From Bacteroidota bacterium (lineage in GTDB: Bacteria; Bacteroidota; Bacteroidia; AKYH767-A; OLB10), in contig JADJMG010000007.1 of the NCBI GenBank assembly GCA_016709725.1, positions 222,258 to 286,257 of the forward strand: 64,000 nucleotides of DNA. The letters run 5' to 3'. Positions 42,865 through 59,708 of this stretch are shown one piece after another; within the stretch, counting starts at the first letter, position 1; every line of letters starts with the position of its first letter. The notes under the pieces are model-generated. The model searched no databases. It worked only from the letters and a program-made list of their open reading frames with translations, and was not told the origin of the DNA. Position numbers and translations under genes: made by a program.

Positions 42865-43006
42865 AGATGTACCCTTTCTCCAAAATATATGAAATTCCAT
42901 GGGTCAAAATGGGAATCAAGCTTTTGATATTGGGGTTATTGTTTTATGGGATATGGAAGGGTTTTCAAGCGTATTTGGCTTGGCATTTTGAGCAGCCGAT
43001 ACATTA

Positions 43007-43160
43007 ATTAAGAATTCAGAATTCAGAATTCAGAATTGGTTTAGATTAGTAGATTAAAACAATCATTTCGCTTCGAAACACATTAAAAAATTCTGATCTT
43101 ACTTACAGCAAAATGGTGCAGAATTCAGAATTGGTTTAGATTAGTAGATCAATATAAATA
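43007..43160. repeat. Low-complexity repeat region: (GAATTCA)x4 microsatellite plus two copies of a ~31-bp unit cagaattcagaattggtttagattagtagat spaced ~108 bp apart
   Basis: Direct inspection. Lies in the convergent intergenic region between 42864 and 43354. Confidence 0.7.
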
Positions 43161-43353
43161 TTCTACTTCGAAACAAGAAAAAAAATTAAACCTCTCTGCA
43201 GTTCATAATTCTGCATTCTTGATTTTGATCCCGATTACTATCGTGAATTTATCTCCCGCGTAGACGCCATAGATTTTTCAAAATGGCAAAAATGTTTTCA
43301 TTGGGTGCTATTCTAATTCTTATCGCGAAGCCTCGCGACTGAATTCTTAATTC

Positions 43354-44076
43354 TTAATTGGATTTCTTCCTCACTCTCATATTCAACAATTCAACGAGTA
43401 GAGAGAATGCCATTGCGAAATAAACATATCCCTTGGGTACTTCAATATGAAAGGCTTCTACCGTTAACATAAATCCAATCATCAAAAGGAAAGAAAGTGC
43501 CAACATTTTAATGGTTGGATGATTATTTACAAAATCCGAAACGGATTTCGCAGCAGCCATCATCACCAACATGGATATTATCACGGCAATAATCATAATA
43601 CTTACATGATCTACTAATCCTACTGCAGTAAGAATTGAATCAAATGAGAAAATAATATCTAATCCAATAATTTGAAGAATGGCAGAATTCATTGTTAGTT
43701 TTTTTAGACTTTCCTTTGTATGATGTTCTTCATCACTAACTTTTCCATGAATTTCGGTAGTGCTTTTTGCCATAAGAAATAACCCACCAATGAGTAATAC
43801 AATATCTCGACCGCTAAATCCTTGGTCCATGATGGTAAAGAATGGTTCTTTTAATCCTACAATCCAGGAAATACTGAAGAGTAATAAAATTCGAATTCCT
43901 AATGCTAAAATAAGTCCAACTCGTCTGGCTTTTTCTTGTTGATTTTTAGGTAGTTTTCCTGCCAAAATAGAAATGAAAATGATATTGTCAATTCCTAATA
44001 CGATTTCCATAACAATCAGGGTAAAAAGTCCAATAAGGCCGTCAACACTAAAGATAAGAGATAATTCTTCTTGCAT
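43354..44076 (-). CDS. TerC-family integral membrane protein
   Basis: 240 aa, about 7 TM segments. LGIDNIIFISILAGKLP and the duplicated TerC core. Confidence 0.85.
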   Translation of the reverse strand: MQEELSLIFSVDGLIGLFTLIVMEIVLGIDNIIFISILAGKLPKNQQEKARRVGLILALGIRILLLFSISWIVGLKEPFFTIMDQGFSGRDIVLLIGGLFLMAKSTTEIHGKVSDEEHHTKESLKKLTMNSAILQIIGLDIIFSFDSILTAVGLVDHVSIMIIAVIISMLVMMAAAKSVSDFVNNHPTIKMLALSFLLMIGFMLTVEAFHIEVPKGYVYFAMAFSLLVELLNMRVRKKSN

Positions 44077-44190
44077 GATACAATTTTAGAGAGTTCAAAG
44101 ATAGATATTTCCCTTTAGGAGTCCATTAATTGACGTTTAGAATTGATCGAAAAGCCTTTTGATAGTTTGAAATTGGGGATTTGCCGTTAA

Positions 44191-44730
44191 TGAAAGCAAG
44201 CTTTCAACACTGCATAAATTTACGGAGTGGCCCAGATTGGCTCCGCCGATCTGGAGAGGGGGGTGATCTAATCAAAACAAAAAGAGGAATTGCATTCCTT
44301 TTTTTCAATGTATGACCGCTTATGAAAGCAAGCTTTCAACACTGCATAAATTTACGGAGTGGCCCAGATTGGCTCCGCCGATCTGGAGAGGGGGGTGATC
44401 TAATCAAAACAAAAAGAGGAATTACATTCCTTTTTTTCAATGTATGACCGCTTATGAAAGCAAGCTTTCAACACTGCATAAATTTGCGGGGGCCGTTGGC
44501 TCCGCCGTCTGGAGGGGTATCTAATCAAACAAAAAGAGAATTGCTTCCTTTTTCATTATGACCGCTTATGAAAGCAAGCTTTGAACACTGCATAAATTTA
44601 CGGAGTGGCCCAGATTGGCTCCGCCGATCTGGAGAGGGGGGTTATCTAATCAAAACAAAAAGAGGAATTACATTCCTTTTTTTCAATGTATGACCGCTTA
44701 TGAAAGCAAGCTTTCAACAAAGTATAAATT
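44191..44730. repeat. Tandem array of ~4.5 units of a ~113-132-bp repeat, in the downstream flank of tRNA-Pro
   Basis: Units begin at 44191, 44323, 44455 and 44568, with a partial unit at 44701. Units 1, 2 and 4 are more than 95% identical; unit 3 is shorter and degenerate. Each unit has the hairpin ccagat-tggctccgcc-gatctgg and the terminator-like hairpin aggaattgcattcct flanked by A- and T-runs. On the minus strand each unit carries CCAATCTGGGCCACTCCG, which resembles the tRNA-Pro 3' end CAAATCTGGCCACCCCG. Confidence 0.85.
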
Positions 44731-44760
44731 GAAAAAAGGATCGGCAAGCCGATCCCTTTT
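44731..44760 (-). terminator. Bidirectional Rho-independent terminator immediately downstream of tRNA-Pro
   Basis: aaaaaaggatcggcaagccgatccctttttg. Confidence 0.65.
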
Positions 44761-44773
44761 TGTTTTGTATTAG

Positions 44774-44847
44774 TCGGGGTGGCCAGATTTGAACTGACGA
44801 CCTCCAGCACCCCATGCTGGCGCGATACCGGGCTACGCTACACCCCG
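44774..44847 (-). tRNA. tRNA-Pro (anticodon GGG)
   Basis: The reverse complement folds as a cloverleaf: acceptor CGGGGTG/CACCCCG, anticodon stem CCAGC/GCTGG with loop ATGGGGT, T-arm GTCAG-TTCAAAT-CTGGC, discriminator A. Confidence 0.85.
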
Positions 44848-45001
44848 AAAAACGATGGTGCAAAAATACATAACTTAAGGATTTGGGACAAATTTTTAAA
44901 ATTCGCTTCAGACTGAAAATAAAACATTTTAGATGATGAAACGTTGTTGTTCATCAGCGAATTCCCATGATCCCATCTAAACTGCTTACTTTTGCATCCT
45001 T

Positions 45002-46951
45002 ATGAAATATTATCTCCTCTTAGCCATTGGGCTATTTCTATTTTCCGCTTCTGTTTCTGCCCAGGAAAACCAAAAAAAAGTCACCGTTTCAGGATATATT
45101 AAGGATTCCACTTCAGGTGAAGCACTCATTGGTGCAGCAATTTATATCAAAGAACTGCAAAAAGGGACTAACGCTAATGCTTATGGCTTTTTTTCATTGA
45201 CACTGAATCCCGGAAAGTATACTTTTATTGTTAATTATATTGGATATAGGGAGCAAGTGTTGGAAGTCGAATTATCTGCTGATAAAAAATTGGATGTTGA
45301 TCTTTTGCCCAATGGAATTGAGAAGAAAGAGGTGGTGATCGTTGCCGAAAGAAAGGATAAGAATGTTCAAAGTACCGATATGGGTAGAGTGGAGCTCGAA
45401 GTGGATAAAATTAAAAGTTTACCCGCCTTGCTCGGTGAAGTAGACATCTTAAAAACACTTCAACTTCTTCCGGGCGTTCAAAATGCAGGCGAAGGTAACT
45501 CAGGTTTCTATGTACGCGGAGGTGGCCCCGATCAGAATTTGATTTTGTTGGATGAAGGTGTTGTTTATAATGCATCTCATCTTTTTGGATTTTTCTCGGT
45601 GTTTAATCCTGATGCTGTAAAAAATGTTACGCTAATTAAAGGTGGAATGCCAGCTCAATACGGGGGACGTCTAGCTTCAGTAGTCGATATTTCAATGAAG
45701 GATGGAAACCAAAAGAAGTTCAAAGCCTCAGGTGGTTTAGGTTATATCGCTTCTCGATTAACGTTGGAAGGACCCATTGTAAAGGATAAAAGTTCGTTTA
45801 TGATTAGTGGTAGAAGAACGTTTATCGATTTATTTTTGCGTGAGCCTTTTATTAAATCTGATTCCAGAATTGCAGGAAACTCGTATTATTTTTATGATCT
45901 GAATGCTAAAATAAATTACACCTTATCACCGAAGGATCGTCTCTTCTTAAGTGGATATTTTGGTCGAGATGTGTTTAATTTCAAAAGCTCCGATACTGGT
46001 TTTAAAGTAAGAATCCCTTGGGGAAATGCAACTACATCATTGCGTTGGAATCATCTTTTCAATGATCAATTGTTTATGAATACATCGCTTATTTTTAACG
46101 ATTATAAATTTGAATTTGGTGCGTCACAGCAGGAATTTGATTTTAAAATATTTTCTGGAATTCGTGATTATAATGCTAAGATTGATCTAAATTGGTTTCC
46201 GAATATTTTACATAATGTTAAGTTCGGAGGAAATTATATTTATCATCGTTTCACACCTACCAATGCTTATGCTCGATCTGGCGATGTCGTTTTTGATTTG
46301 GGAAAAGTTACTCGATTCTACGCACACGATGCCTCTTTTTATGTGAATGATGAATGGGATGTCACTGAAAAATTCAGAGTGAATGCTGGCGTGCGGGTTT
46401 CGTATTTTGCACATATTGGACCTTTTTCGCGCTACGTGGAAGATCCTTCTTTCCCAGGTAAATTTTTAGATACAATTGATTATGCTCAAGGAAAAAAAGT
46501 GGCGGATTATCTGAATGCAGAACCACGATTTAGCATGCGCTATGAGTTGAATAAATCTTCCTCTGTAAAAGCATCCTTCACACAAAATTATCAGTATATC
46601 CACATCGCTTCTTTTGGTTCGGTGAGTTTGCCTACTGATGTTTGGGTGCCCAGTACCGATAAAGTAAAACCTCAGTTTGGTACTCAATATTCGTTAGGGT
46701 ATTTTAAAAATCTAAAGGATAATATGTACGAAACTTCGGTGGAAGTGTACTACAAGGAAATGAAGAATCAGATCGATTACGAAGAAGGTGCTACACCCGA
46801 TGGAGATGTACGAAATAATCCGGATAATAATTTTGTGTTCGGTAAGGGTTGGAGTTATGGAGCCGAATTTTTTGTGAAAAAGTCGATGGGGAAATTGAAT
46901 GGTTGGATTGGATATACTTTATCTTACACAAAAGAAAATTCCCCGACTTAA
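45002..46951 (+). CDS. TonB-dependent receptor (CarboxypepD_reg-like N-terminal domain, plug, beta-barrel), fragment 1 of 3
   Basis: Signal peptide. VSGYIKDSTSGEALIGAAIYI is the CarbopepD_reg domain. Plug motifs follow. The fragment ends inside the barrel at ...GYTLSYTKENSPT*. Adding one A to the run at ~46930 restores ...TKRKFPDLNQGRTF.... Confidence 0.8.
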   Translation: MKYYLLLAIGLFLFSASVSAQENQKKVTVSGYIKDSTSGEALIGAAIYIKELQKGTNANAYGFFSLTLNPGKYTFIVNYIGYREQVLEVELSADKKLDVDLLPNGIEKKEVVIVAERKDKNVQSTDMGRVELEVDKIKSLPALLGEVDILKTLQLLPGVQNAGEGNSGFYVRGGGPDQNLILLDEGVVYNASHLFGFFSVFNPDAVKNVTLIKGGMPAQYGGRLASVVDISMKDGNQKKFKASGGLGYIASRLTLEGPIVKDKSSFMISGRRTFIDLFLREPFIKSDSRIAGNSYYFYDLNAKINYTLSPKDRLFLSGYFGRDVFNFKSSDTGFKVRIPWGNATTSLRWNHLFNDQLFMNTSLIFNDYKFEFGASQQEFDFKIFSGIRDYNAKIDLNWFPNILHNVKFGGNYIYHRFTPTNAYARSGDVVFDLGKVTRFYAHDASFYVNDEWDVTEKFRVNAGVRVSYFAHIGPFSRYVEDPSFPGKFLDTIDYAQGKKVADYLNAEPRFSMRYELNKSSSVKASFTQNYQYIHIASFGSVSLPTDVWVPSTDKVKPQFGTQYSLGYFKNLKDNMYETSVEVYYKEMKNQIDYEEGATPDGDVRNNPDNNFVFGKGWSYGAEFFVKKSMGKLNGWIGYTLSYTKENSPT

Positions 46952-47046
46952 ACCAAGGACGAACATTTTCTGCTAAATACGATCGACGTCATGATGCATC
47001 ATTGGTAGTGGTGTATGATCACAGTAAAAATGGACATTCGGCTTAA
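46849..47046 (+). CDS. TonB-dependent receptor, fragment 2 of 3 (the ORF-table start is artifactual; the true frame enters at ~46935)
   Basis: Contains KFPDLNQGRTFSAKYDRRHDASLVVVYDHSK, a barrel strand region. A second A-run indel at 47026-47030 restores ...HSKKWTFGLTWVYATGDA.... Confidence 0.55.
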   Translation: MELWSRIFCEKVDGEIEWLDWIYFILHKRKFPDLNQGRTFSAKYDRRHDASLVVVYDHSKNGHSA

Positions 47047-47051
47047 CTTGG

Positions 47052-47432
47052 GTGTATGCTACCGGTGATGCCTTAACGTTGCCTGCCGAAAGGTATTTCA
47101 TGTCGGCCGGACCACCAGTCAACATCGATCAAAATGGACAGGTAGGTGTAAATAATAATTTTTACATCTTAAGTGGATTCGATAAACGAAATGATTACAG
47201 GCAGAAAGCATTTCATCGTTTGGATATTTCTGCAACTTTGCGCAGCCAAAAACAAAGAAATTACGAGACAGAATGGGTGTTTGCCGTATATAATTTCTAC
47301 GGTCGACAAAATCCATACTTCATCTATTTCGATGTGCAAGGAAATAGTCAAGATGGAAATCAAAAAGTACAAGCAAAACAAGTATCACTGTTCAGTGTGA
47401 TTCCATCCGTTACTTACAATTTTAAATTTTAA
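47052..47432 (+). CDS. TonB-dependent receptor, fragment 3 of 3 (C-terminal barrel strands)
   Basis: Ends ...VTYNFKF with the terminal aromatic Phe typical of OM beta-barrels. Confidence 0.7.
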   Translation: MYATGDALTLPAERYFMSAGPPVNIDQNGQVGVNNNFYILSGFDKRNDYRQKAFHRLDISATLRSQKQRNYETEWVFAVYNFYGRQNPYFIYFDVQGNSQDGNQKVQAKQVSLFSVIPSVTYNFKF

Positions 47433-58995: not shown

Positions 58996-59635
58996 ACCCA
59001 TCTCGCTGAGTCCGCGACTTTATTCTGGACTCCGTTGCCGAATGGAAAAGGCAAAGCGAATGCTACGCATTTTTTTGATTTTTTGAAATCTGCCTTTGGC
59101 AGAGCAGGAGAATAGGAGAATAGGAGTCCCGATAGCTATCGGGAGGGAGAGTGGGAGAAGGAAGATCAGTAAAATGGGCTGGGTGCTAGAATTTATGAGT
59201 TTCAAATGGACTAAATAAGATTTCCTAAAAATCAAAAGGCCTTCTTACAGGGCTTTAGCTTTGCATTGATTATTGATCCCGCCGGGAGTATCAAGTCTAG
59301 ACATGTTGAAGTCAACATGACTAGACTTTTTGGACCCATTTGCCTGAGTCCGCCACGTTGTTCTGGACTCCAAAGCCATCGTGAAAATAGAAAGCACTGC
59401 AGCTAAAGCTGCGAATTTAGTTTTTTGTCATCTGCTTTCATGCAAGCATGAGCAGATTTCCTGGGAATGTCTCGCCGCAAGCGTCGAGACGGACCCATCT
59501 CGCTCCGAATGGAAAAAGCAAAGCGAATGCTCCGCATTTTTTTGATTTTTTGAAATCTGCCAGCAAGCGAGCTTGCGCAGATTTCCTAAAAATCAAAAAG
59601 GCCCTCGTAGAGGGCCTTCGCTTTGCATTTACTAG
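58996..59635. repeat. Complex repeat region downstream of tRNA-Lys, containing partial duplicates of the tRNA 3' end and its flank, plus local direct repeats
   Basis: 59221-59292 (tttcctaaaaatcaaaaggcc...gatcccgccggga) duplicates 59575-59647 (tttcctaaaaatcaaaaaggccc...gatcccgctggga), which is the 3' end of tRNA-Lys plus its terminator. gacccatctcgct...cgaatggaaaa(a/g)gcaaagcgaatgct(a/c)cgcatttttttgattttttgaaatctgcc occurs at 58996 and at 59493; the first copy carries an extra 29-bp hairpin (gagtcc...ggactc), which is also present at 59346. The 18-bp palindrome TCCCGATAGCTATCGGGA is at 59127-59144. Confidence 0.8.
59590..59617 (-). terminator. Rho-independent terminator of tRNA-Lys
   Basis: ggccctctacgagggcc followed by tttttgattttt on the minus strand. 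Confidence 0.65.
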
Positions 59636-59708
59636 TGATCCCGCTGGGACTCGAACCCAGGGCCCATACATTAAAAGTGTATTGCTCTACCAACTGAGCT
59701 ACGGAATC
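59636..59708 (-). tRNA. tRNA-Lys (anticodon UUU)
   Basis: Reverse complement GATTCCGTAGCTCAGTTGGTAGAGCAATACACTTTTAATGTATGGGCCCTGGGTTCGAGTCCCAGCGGGATCA. Acceptor GATTCCG/CGGGATC, anticodon loop CTTTTAA. Confidence 0.9.

Follow-up and report, generated by a model that had tools for sequence, protein, structure and literature searches.

The stretch of DNA analyzed here, referred to as the window, comprises 64,000 nucleotides (nt) of the Bacteroidota assembly GCA_016709725.1 (contig JADJMG010000007.1) and carries a tandem array of short palindromic repeats directly beside a proline tRNA gene. All coordinates are given as window positions. The gene to which the repeats are attached, tRNA-Pro(GGG), is located on the minus strand at 44773-44847 (ARAGORN; 57.9 bits with the Rfam tRNA model). 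Tandem Repeats Finder (TRF) reports a single array at 44190-44730 with a period of 132, 4.2 copies, 89% matches and a score of 900. According to TRF and the alignment of the units, the array consists of unit 1 (44190-44321), unit 2 (44322-44453), unit 3 (44454-44567), unit 4 (44568-44699) and an incomplete fifth unit (44700-44730), which passes into the true 3' flank of tRNA-Pro. The opening 20-mer ATGAAAGCAAGCTTTCAACA is found at 44190, 44322, 44454, 44568 (with one mismatch) and 44700, that is, five matches versus 0.03 expected. Units 1, 2 and 4 share a pairwise identity of 97.7-99.2%; unit 3 is 114 nt long and diverges from the other units mainly by 18 nt of small deletions. A preliminary description of the locus had claimed a tandem array of units of about 130 bp next to tRNA-Pro, a fifth partial unit running into the tRNA end, more than 95% identity of units 1, 2 and 4 as a sign of recent amplification, and a shortened, decayed unit 3. 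These claims hold, with unit starts that agree to within 1 nt. The near-identity of the units points to a recent tandem duplication of one unit and not to independent integrations.

All units are built from the same succession of parts. Read on the minus (tRNA) strand, a copy of the tRNA 3' end (AATCTGGGCCACTCCG) leads into a short piece of stem and then the core hairpin; next come a pseudo-copy, in inverted orientation, of the stem, terminator and trailer that belong to the tRNA itself, then a C-rich motif and finally a junction hairpin. The core hairpin, here termed M, is located at 44319-44341 on the minus strand, with further copies at 44187-44209, 44451-44473, 44565-44587 (one mismatch) and 44697-44719. 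The plus strand reads CTTATGAAAGCAAGCTTTCAACA and the minus strand UGUUGAAAG-CUUG-CUUUCAUAAG. This core of 22 nt (UGAAAG-CUUG-CUUUCA) has a stem of 6 bp capped by a G(CUUG)C tetraloop; a small internal loop rich in purines is also present. All five copies in the window are matched by the covariance model R1 on the minus strand only (34-43 bits). Two points had escaped the preliminary description: the invariant start of the unit is this widely conserved core hairpin, and the region of the A/T-flanked hairpin is the inverted pseudo-copy of trailer and terminator.

The tRNA-Pro 3'-end copy, which extends from T-loop A58 to the acceptor end and discriminator, is found on the minus strand at 44223-44238, 44355-44370 and 44601-44616; unit 3 holds a decayed copy. 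In local alignments, AATCTGGGCCACTCCG matches the tRNA-Pro of the window with p~0.01 and the 3' end of tRNA-Pro in the closest relatives (AATCTGGCCACTCCG) at 15 of 15 bases plus one inserted G (p<0.0005), so that the likeness to the tRNA 3' end that had been matched by hand lies beyond chance. The 3' end of tRNA-Pro reads AATCTGGCCACTCCGA in all close relatives, and the window's own tRNA has a C at the sole differing position. Because every fragment in the window shares the extra G as well as a T where the tRNA of the window has its C, the units are best regarded as descendants of one ancestral copy rather than as repeated insertions.

Overlapping this copy is the junction hairpin c2, CCAGATTGGCTCCGCCGATCTGG (minus strand; 44232-44254, 44364-44386 and 44610-44632), with three exact copies versus none expected. 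In the predicted fold, c2 is a mimic of the T-arm that comprises the 3' strand of the tRNA T-stem, its inverted copy and an inner GC-GGA-GC mini-hairpin; the inverted T-stem copy pairs with the tRNA fragment of the next unit. Target-specific hairpins homologous to c2 are found at 13 other loci. The adjoining G-rich motif AGAGGGGGGTGATC, C-rich on the tRNA strand (44255-44268, 44387-44400 and 44633-44646), recurs by inspection beside c2 in related elements at other tRNAs, e.g. as TGGGGGTGAC and TATGGGGGTGAC. Arm A', the inverted pseudo-copy of trailer, terminator and stem, is located at 44268-44321, 44400-44453 and 44646-44699. It aligns to the tRNA-strand flank with a score of 42, compared to a null maximum of 28, so that the terminal inverted repeats of the unit include a significant inverted copy of the tRNA flank. 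Within arm A' lies the A/T-flanked hairpin AGGAATTGCATTCCT (44285-44299). It has just two G-C pairs and is not recognized by a standard terminator scan, but A/U pairing lengthens it in the fold. The box TAAATTTA is palindromic, resembles a -7 element on both strands and is part of the stem that encloses the core. On the plus strand, the unit folds better than shuffled sequences (z=-2.6).

The true 3' flank of tRNA-Pro (arm A, 44720-44772, minus strand; terminator scan and hairpin census) contains the trailer, the intrinsic terminator and the stem partner of the last core. The terminator, GGATCGGCAAGCCGATCC, is located at 44738-44755 and has a CUUG loop on the tRNA strand. Upstream of the tRNA gene, a Bacteroidota-type promoter (TTTG...TAnnTTTG) is found at 44861-44892 on the minus strand, the sole such match of the pattern search in the locus.

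The core is not confined to the window. The exact 20-mer is found in 74 contigs of a set of species-representative genomes (about one expected by chance), and an exact 18-mer of the core in at least 120 metagenome contigs. In Bacteroidota, the core is found in many families and typically lies just past a tRNA gene encoded on the opposite strand, with a terminator in between and an inverted pseudo-copy of the flank on the far side; the core sits between two convergent terminators. Among 57 unique Bacteroidota cases with the tRNA on the opposite strand, the tRNA 3' end is 40-62 nt from the core (median 53). Nine isotypes are represented, namely Ser, Pro, Arg, His, Gln, Val, Ala, Met and Lys.

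The insertion signature follows the neighboring tRNA. The terminal 16-mer of the adjacent tRNA itself is repeated beyond the element, 160-244 nt from the gene, at 14 of the 44 tRNA-linked loci with enough sequence for this comparison, including Ser, His, Pro, Met, Arg and Gln tRNAs. Similarly, every junction hairpin holds a T-stem mimic that fits the local tRNA, plus an inner GC-GNA-GC mini-hairpin. The arms, in turn, are homologous across targets: elements at tRNA-His and tRNA-Pro share an arm identity of 0.75-0.82, and in one metagenome-assembled genome, the arms at tRNA-Ser(TGA) are nearly identical to those at tRNA-Ser(CGA), a third copy being truncated by the end of a contig. Since repeats and T-stem mimics change with the local tRNA and the arms stay homologous, the repeat is derived from the target and not from a fixed attP. 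At two related loci (L033 and L050; L numbers denote related loci), what comes after the displaced tRNA fragment is another, older terminator, and a second core is absent. The simplest reading of these two sequences would be that about 150 bp were inserted, separating the T-loop from the original 3' end, and that the 3' end was duplicated. Arrays are also found in other lineages, with repeat periods of 112-171 bp and as many as five cores (L067, 165 bp; L051, 112 bp; L176, 138 bp and five cores; L144; L170).

In Clostridia, the core occurs in two other settings. In the first, it is central in an element of about 150 bp with 14-bp terminal inverted repeats and 8-9-bp target duplications; the target-derived repeat in Bacteroidota, in contrast, measures about 16-19 nt and comes with the inverted T-stem copy. 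In Lachnospiraceae (L012, L047, L114, L151, L213 and others), this element takes the form of a MITE (miniature inverted-repeat transposable element) with the terminal inverted repeat GTAACAGTTCAGCC and the core at its exact center, often directly upstream of genes, as at the start of a glutamyl-tRNA synthetase gene in L047. In the second setting, the core is part of hairpins in spacers and leaders of rRNA operons. The Lacrimispora operons concerned are ordered 16S-5S-tRNA-tRNA-23S (L016, positions 600-1000; L032; L045), and their core hairpins are found in the spacer between 16S and 5S as well as in leaders immediately upstream of the boxA-like TGTACCTTGAAAACC.

The 18-mer also matches the V1 (helix 6) hairpin GGGGCAGCGGGTTGAAAGCTTGCTTTCAATGCCGGCG in a group of Bacteroidota 16S rRNA genes (L126, L130, L152, L155, L158, L166, L201 and L212), so the core of the element is identical to a natural rRNA hairpin in the tRNA-sense orientation. 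A second conserved cap is present in junction and arm hairpins. Its sequence on the tRNA strand is GA-GC-GAA-GC-GA, corresponding to TCGCTTCGCTC on the core-plus strand, and it was found in L072, L051, L011, L063, L002, L060, L005 and many left arms in L104-L199. The heptamer GCGAAGC contained in it is a DNA mini-hairpin of unusual stability.

When 91 non-redundant elements are aligned without gaps, the helix flanking the core is paired at 73%, and all ten of its pairs change on both sides. The covariation of this helix amounts to 0.444 versus 0.150 after shuffling (reached in none of 500 shuffles) and at most 0.194 with the pairing partners slid. The elements fold better on the tRNA-sense strand in 68 of 73 and in 95 of 105 instances. 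G.T pairs outnumber A.C pairs by 87 to 28 (p=3e-8) and G.A pairs outnumber C.T pairs by 123 to 23. The loops show the same polarity: TTC is the commonest triloop of both arm hairpins on the core-plus strand (16 and 11 cases), corresponding to GAA on the tRNA strand, and is not mirrored. As inverted duplication cannot mimic such a strand asymmetry, selection appears to have acted on one strand of the element in single-stranded form, be it RNA or single-stranded DNA (ssDNA). In clostridial rRNA operons, the favored strand is antisense to the rRNA, for which a tolerance of the weaker-folding orientation in transcripts is the only explanation that can be offered. A bias with respect to the replication strand was considered and dropped, with local GC skew giving 17 versus 15 cases in Clostridia (mixed) and 19 versus 5 in Bacteroidota (mildly biased).

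To place the array in its evolutionary context, syntenic tRNA-Pro-terC loci were obtained via near-identical homologs of TerC, the exact protein of the window having no match. The terC gene (43354-44076, minus strand; Pfam TerC, E=1.9e-47) is the downstream neighbor of the array, lies outside the element and serves as synteny anchor. In relatives with 80-83% TerC identity (L086-L089), synteny is kept, yet there is neither core nor array, and the flank is unrelated from the first base after tRNA-Pro. The acceptor 3' strand of their tRNA-Pro reads CACCCCG. Relatives with 94-99% TerC identity (L075-L085) carry one to three units and the derived T (CACTCCG) in the tRNA itself. The window combines the two states: its tRNA-Pro has CACCCCG (G4-C69), like the element-free distant relatives, and every tRNA fragment in its array has the base of the element-bearing close relatives, all of which read CACTCCG (G4.U69). 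One of the latter, L081 (95% TerC identity), keeps a full terminator between core and tRNA fragment, which is lost in the units of the window, and has two direct flank copies, each with terminator and core, that surround an inverted copy. At 90% TerC identity (L090 and L091), tRNA-Pro is absent; a core remnant beside terC, TTGAAAGCAAGTTTTCAACA, abuts a HepT/MNT toxin-antitoxin pair in its place (L090, 780-1103; L091, 607-930). This arrangement would indicate a rearrangement breakpoint at the core.

On the other side of the tRNA gene, a TonB-dependent receptor is encoded on the plus strand from 45002 onward. In the window (45002-47432), it is represented by an open reading frame (ORF) of 649 aa followed by further short ORFs, compared to 810 aa in relatives of 99% identity, and the window differs from these relatives by 3-5 single-base gaps per about 3.8 kb. 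This suggests a frameshift or assembly indels in the receptor gene; assembly indels may also be behind some of the small deletions of unit 3. Between a 163-aa ORF and terC, there are two 7-bp tandem repeats, AATTCAG (4.6 copies, 43006-43037) and AATTCTT (2.6 copies, 43342-43359). Elsewhere in the window, the core model gives a weak match at 59546-59593 (18.4 bits, E=0.14) near tRNA-Lys (59635-59708). Beyond the terminator of this tRNA, several hairpins with a G(CUUG)C cap and the common arm GGAAATCTGC are found on the minus strand at 59420-59600, e.g. GAAATCTGCGCAAGCTCGCTTGCTGGCAGATTTC. They may represent a diverged relative of the tRNA-Pro element family at a second tRNA.

Searches against known families were negative. 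At the gathering threshold, Rfam 15 yields only tRNA matches in the window and 18 related loci, and at permissive settings the array and L072 show nothing but chance matches below threshold. Unit, core and junction hairpin have no blastn match in phages and plasmids, and no exact core or junction hairpin is found in 2.9 million viral contigs. The 132-bp units contain no integrase, ORF or island cargo. All-against-all clustering of neighboring ORFs, performed twice, revealed no recurrent recombinase near about 190 related loci; the clusters consist of housekeeping, response-regulator and ABC families only. No GTAG or CGTC head is seen on core or arms by inspection, and the fetched loci contain no parent insertion sequence (IS) but only pairs of terminal inverted repeats about 150 bp apart, a collection-wide search for a parent element not having been made. 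In the literature, the core sequence in both orientations and alphabets retrieves only unrelated primer matches, and keyword searches did not find the element described. No match to the core motif was found in a study on palindromic candidate RNAs in microbiomes (PMC8040213). This negative outcome is no proof that the element is undescribed. Several likenesses noted by eye were set aside, as none fits fully: a dif/Xer arm, parS, cre, the Rex operator, the integron GTTRRRY core, the 11-nt tetraloop receptor, the position of rrn boxB/boxA, and an anti-Shine-Dalgarno complementarity of the G-rich motif. Among the checks that the preliminary description had proposed, conservation and tRNA co-occurrence in other genomes are found, with the core beyond tRNAs of nine isotypes and covarying flanking stems, and copy number varies from one to three units in closer relatives, mostly in short-read assemblies, to none at 80-83% TerC identity. 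The comparison with Rfam gave no match, and no integrase recurs around the related loci.

Taken together, the region is interpreted, with a probability of about 0.58, as a cluster, amplified in tandem, of a miniature palindromic element that is non-autonomous and non-coding and has tRNA 3' ends as its target, each unit being a complete element of about 130-190 bp that belongs to one conserved family. The observations behind this reading are the common architecture at nine isotypes, the core spacing of 40-62 nt, the target-derived repeat, the element-free syntenic relatives and the covarying, strand-asymmetric stems. On the tRNA strand, the element comprises the tRNA trailer and intrinsic terminator, a stem, the 22-nt core, an inverted pseudo-copy of the stem with terminator and trailer, the C-rich motif and the T-arm-like junction hairpin, and is followed by a direct repeat of the last 16-17 nt or so of the target tRNA (T-loop A58 to 3' end). 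It would insert at the T-loop/3' end of a tRNA gene by means of an enzyme supplied in trans, and the duplication of the tRNA 3' end upon insertion would leave the gene intact. Its working or mobile form may be a folded single strand with tRNA-sense polarity, either RNA or ssDNA. In the window, one inserted unit would have lost its internal copy of the terminator and then given rise to four copies by unequal recombination or slippage. For the host, the consequences probably do not go beyond additional hairpins and weak terminators in the tRNA-Pro-terC spacer.

A number of points weigh against this interpretation. Neither an enzyme nor an excised or circular form was found, and mobility is deduced from comparative patterns only. 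Within the 64-kb window, the element is present at a single locus, apart from the one weak match downstream of tRNA-Lys. The target duplication of about 17 bp is unusually long for a transposon, and the inverted, target-specific T-stem copy at the junction is not explained by a simple staggered cut. The clostridial relatives show a different insertion signature (8-9-bp duplications), and the shared core may be a module rather than the marker of one mechanism. Inverted duplication alone also yields apparent covariation, which leaves the strand asymmetry as the sole argument for a function of the single strand. Finally, the copy numbers of the relatives derive mostly from short-read assemblies, which collapse repeats, and L075 has a gap of Ns in its array.

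A bolder extension of the same interpretation would make the core elements an undescribed, cross-phylum class of structured mobile element with a tRNA-sense single-stranded intermediate, guide-like pairing to the T-loop/T-stem and a duplication of about 17 nt; it is speculative and considered improbable. The intermediate would be either a tRNA read-through RNA copied back into DNA or ssDNA handled by a hairpin-recognizing enzyme. A short guide-like segment of the junction hairpin would pair with the conserved T-loop/T-stem, and the duplication would regenerate the tRNA 3' end. The breakpoint at T-loop A58 could then reflect the ruler of the enzyme or a stop at a folded or modified tRNA.

Alternatively, the array could have originated locally without any mobile element: two template switches, one at the T-arm of the tRNA and one at the hairpin of the core, both of them quasi-palindromes, would have produced a tandem inversion duplication. 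The resulting layout, namely arm A, a turn centered on the T-arm, inverted arm A', a turn centered on the core, and arm A again, would later have been remodeled by deletions and amplified. The architecture of the unit fits this scheme, as do the two direct flank copies around an inverted copy in L081 and the near-palindromic nature of T-arm DNA, and local copying predicts that the repeated tRNA fragment and the T-stem mimic always come from the adjacent tRNA. However, it does not explain the arrival of the core together with a wholly new flank, both of which are missing in L086-L089, nor the fragments in L033 and L050 that lead into a different, older terminator without a second core. Homologous arms at different isotypes and in different genomes also argue against it. 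Moreover, the inverted arm is no recent copy, with a terminator stem that differs in sequence and keeps its pairing, and the core also resides in the Lachnospiraceae MITE with its target-site duplications. A purely local origin is therefore rated as unlikely. Small RNA (sRNA) genes, each with its own promoter and terminator on the plus strand, had been proposed in the preliminary description; under this view, the units, or the array as a whole, would be transcribed into structured cellular RNAs and repeated for gene dosage. The plus-strand fold of the unit, the covarying stems with their RNA-typical G.U and G.A asymmetry, the stable CUUG and GNA loop classes, and an A/U-flanked hairpin in each unit plus the -7-like box on both strands are in line with such RNAs. 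The promoter claim, however, did not survive: TTTC lies 9 nt, and not about 19 nt (19-21 nt), upstream of TAAATTTA, which itself is within the core-enclosing stem. Searches for TTTG-N17-23-TAnnTTTG match only the promoter of tRNA-Pro, and a sigma-70-type scan finds none. The supposedly strong terminator hairpin AGGAATTGCATTCCT does not pass the terminator scan, in which the terminator of tRNA-Pro is the only one detected. The family-wide asymmetry and the structural selection on the core favor the tRNA-sense strand and not the plus strand, the core of Bacteroidota elements is enclosed by two convergent terminators, no Rfam family matches, and the proposed RNA body (junction hairpin and G-rich motif) is target-specific and variable between loci. 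Tandem sRNA genes thus appear quite improbable.

The second proposal of the preliminary description, an array of att remnants, stands in part. Partial tRNA genes are well known to arise through the integration of mobile elements at tRNA genes (PMC9897764), the units contain genuine copies of the tRNA-Pro 3' end from the T-loop onward, the tRNA of relatives bearing M has the derived T of the fragments (CACTCCG), and the same signature recurs at 14 other loci. What did not stand is their reading as decayed attR/attL scars left by repeated integration and loss of large, integrase-encoding elements, which is judged very unlikely. The units are highly identical, of only 132 bp, and free of island remnants and ORFs; no integrase recurs at the related loci; phages, plasmids and viral contigs offer no match to unit, core or junction hairpin; and homologous elements carry the 3' end of whichever tRNA adjoins, which a fixed attP would not. 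A further possibility, that each unit encodes a 41-aa peptide (MKASFQHCINLR...), starts from the ATG at the beginning of the core and a frame open to a TGA near the unit end, which is kept in units 1-4 including the deleted unit 3. The conservation is, however, at the nucleotide level and ends after the core, with no amino-acid conservation past MKASFQ and wholly different downstream codons between loci. There is no ribosome-binding context, and the frame crosses two hairpins and a terminator-like stem. The chance that the units are peptide genes is negligible.

If the reading as a miniature palindromic element is correct, many Bacteroidota tRNA genes are trailed by a small selfish or domesticated element that replaces trailer and terminator and leaves the gene unbroken. 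Such elements would confuse tRNA annotation through partial-tRNA repeats, break short-read assemblies (many matches lie at contig ends), and seed tandem arrays and rearrangements, as in the case of the HepT/MNT pair beside a core remnant where tRNA-Pro is expected. An insertion chemistry outside the obvious textbook cases is suggested by the junction hairpin with its target specificity and by the unusually long target duplication, and the 20-nt core common to Bacteroidota and Clostridia is very strongly conserved and unexplained. For the window itself, the practical message is modest: the array is to be treated as repeat DNA rather than as regulatory RNA genes.

Several known systems share features with the element. 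Cis-mobilizable elements (CIMEs) are att-flanked, non-autonomous and accrete in tandem at tRNA genes, and arrays of tRNA remnants are reportedly found beside tycheposons (bioRxiv 10.1101/2020.12.28.424599). The element resembles both in the order of intact tRNA, inserted DNA and direct repeat of the tRNA 3' end, in tandem stacking and in the lack of a recombinase in cis. Unlike them, it is palindromic, ORF-free and only about 130-190 bp in length, its repeat changes with the target tRNA while the arms stay homologous, and neither a partner integrase nor an attP element was found at the related loci and in the viral contigs searched. Hairpin MITEs such as Correia, ERIC, RUP and BOX are likewise short, non-coding and multi-copy, with long inverted arms and an intergenic location near terminators, and the Lachnospiraceae relatives of the core have clear terminal inverted repeats (GTAACAGTTCAGCC) and 8-9-bp target-site duplications. 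The Bacteroidota element differs from MITEs in its target (T-loop/3' end of tRNAs), its duplication of about 17 nt and its target-specific junction hairpin; its conserved part is the center and not the ends, and there is no parent IS among the fetched loci. REP/BIME/REPIN sequences, which are mobilized by RAYT (HUH) transposases, are also extragenic palindromes downstream of genes that form clusters of alternating orientation and amplify in tandem, with strand-asymmetric hairpins consistent with action on ssDNA, but the present units are much longer, have no GTAG/CGTC head by inspection and are strictly tied to tRNA 3' ends.

Tandem inversion duplications at quasi-palindromes have been described in Salmonella as sporadic, locus-specific rearrangements. 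They share with the array the direct-inverted-direct order, junctions at short hairpins and later remodeling by deletion, whereas the same core and arms recur here at many tRNAs in many genomes. The core stem-loop GUUGAAAGCUUGCUUUCAA is identical to the V1 hairpin (helix 6) of some Bacteroidota 16S rRNAs (L126 and others), and its G(CUUG)C cap is the classic stable tetraloop of this helix. Context and flanks of the element are unrelated to 16S rRNA, and the likeness is probably not one of homology but the result of selection for one and the same very stable cap. Palindromic elements derived from IS200/IS605 (PATE) are characterized by strand-specific folded ends, recognition of the target through pairing with the element, the absence of a target duplication and a Y1 HUH transposase. 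The element shows strand asymmetry and, in the junction hairpin, a segment that matches the target, but it also has a direct repeat. In its behavior it corresponds to a non-autonomous, att-flanked element or a MITE, and it is similar to clusters of the BIME type. With no integrase or attP partner, no tagged head and no Rfam match, the element falls outside island remnants, REP sequences and all Rfam families alike. It is set apart from the systems compared by an unusual combination of features: the T-loop/3' end of tRNAs as target, a duplication of about 17 nt that preserves the gene, a junction hairpin that matches the target, and a central core that is found in two phyla.

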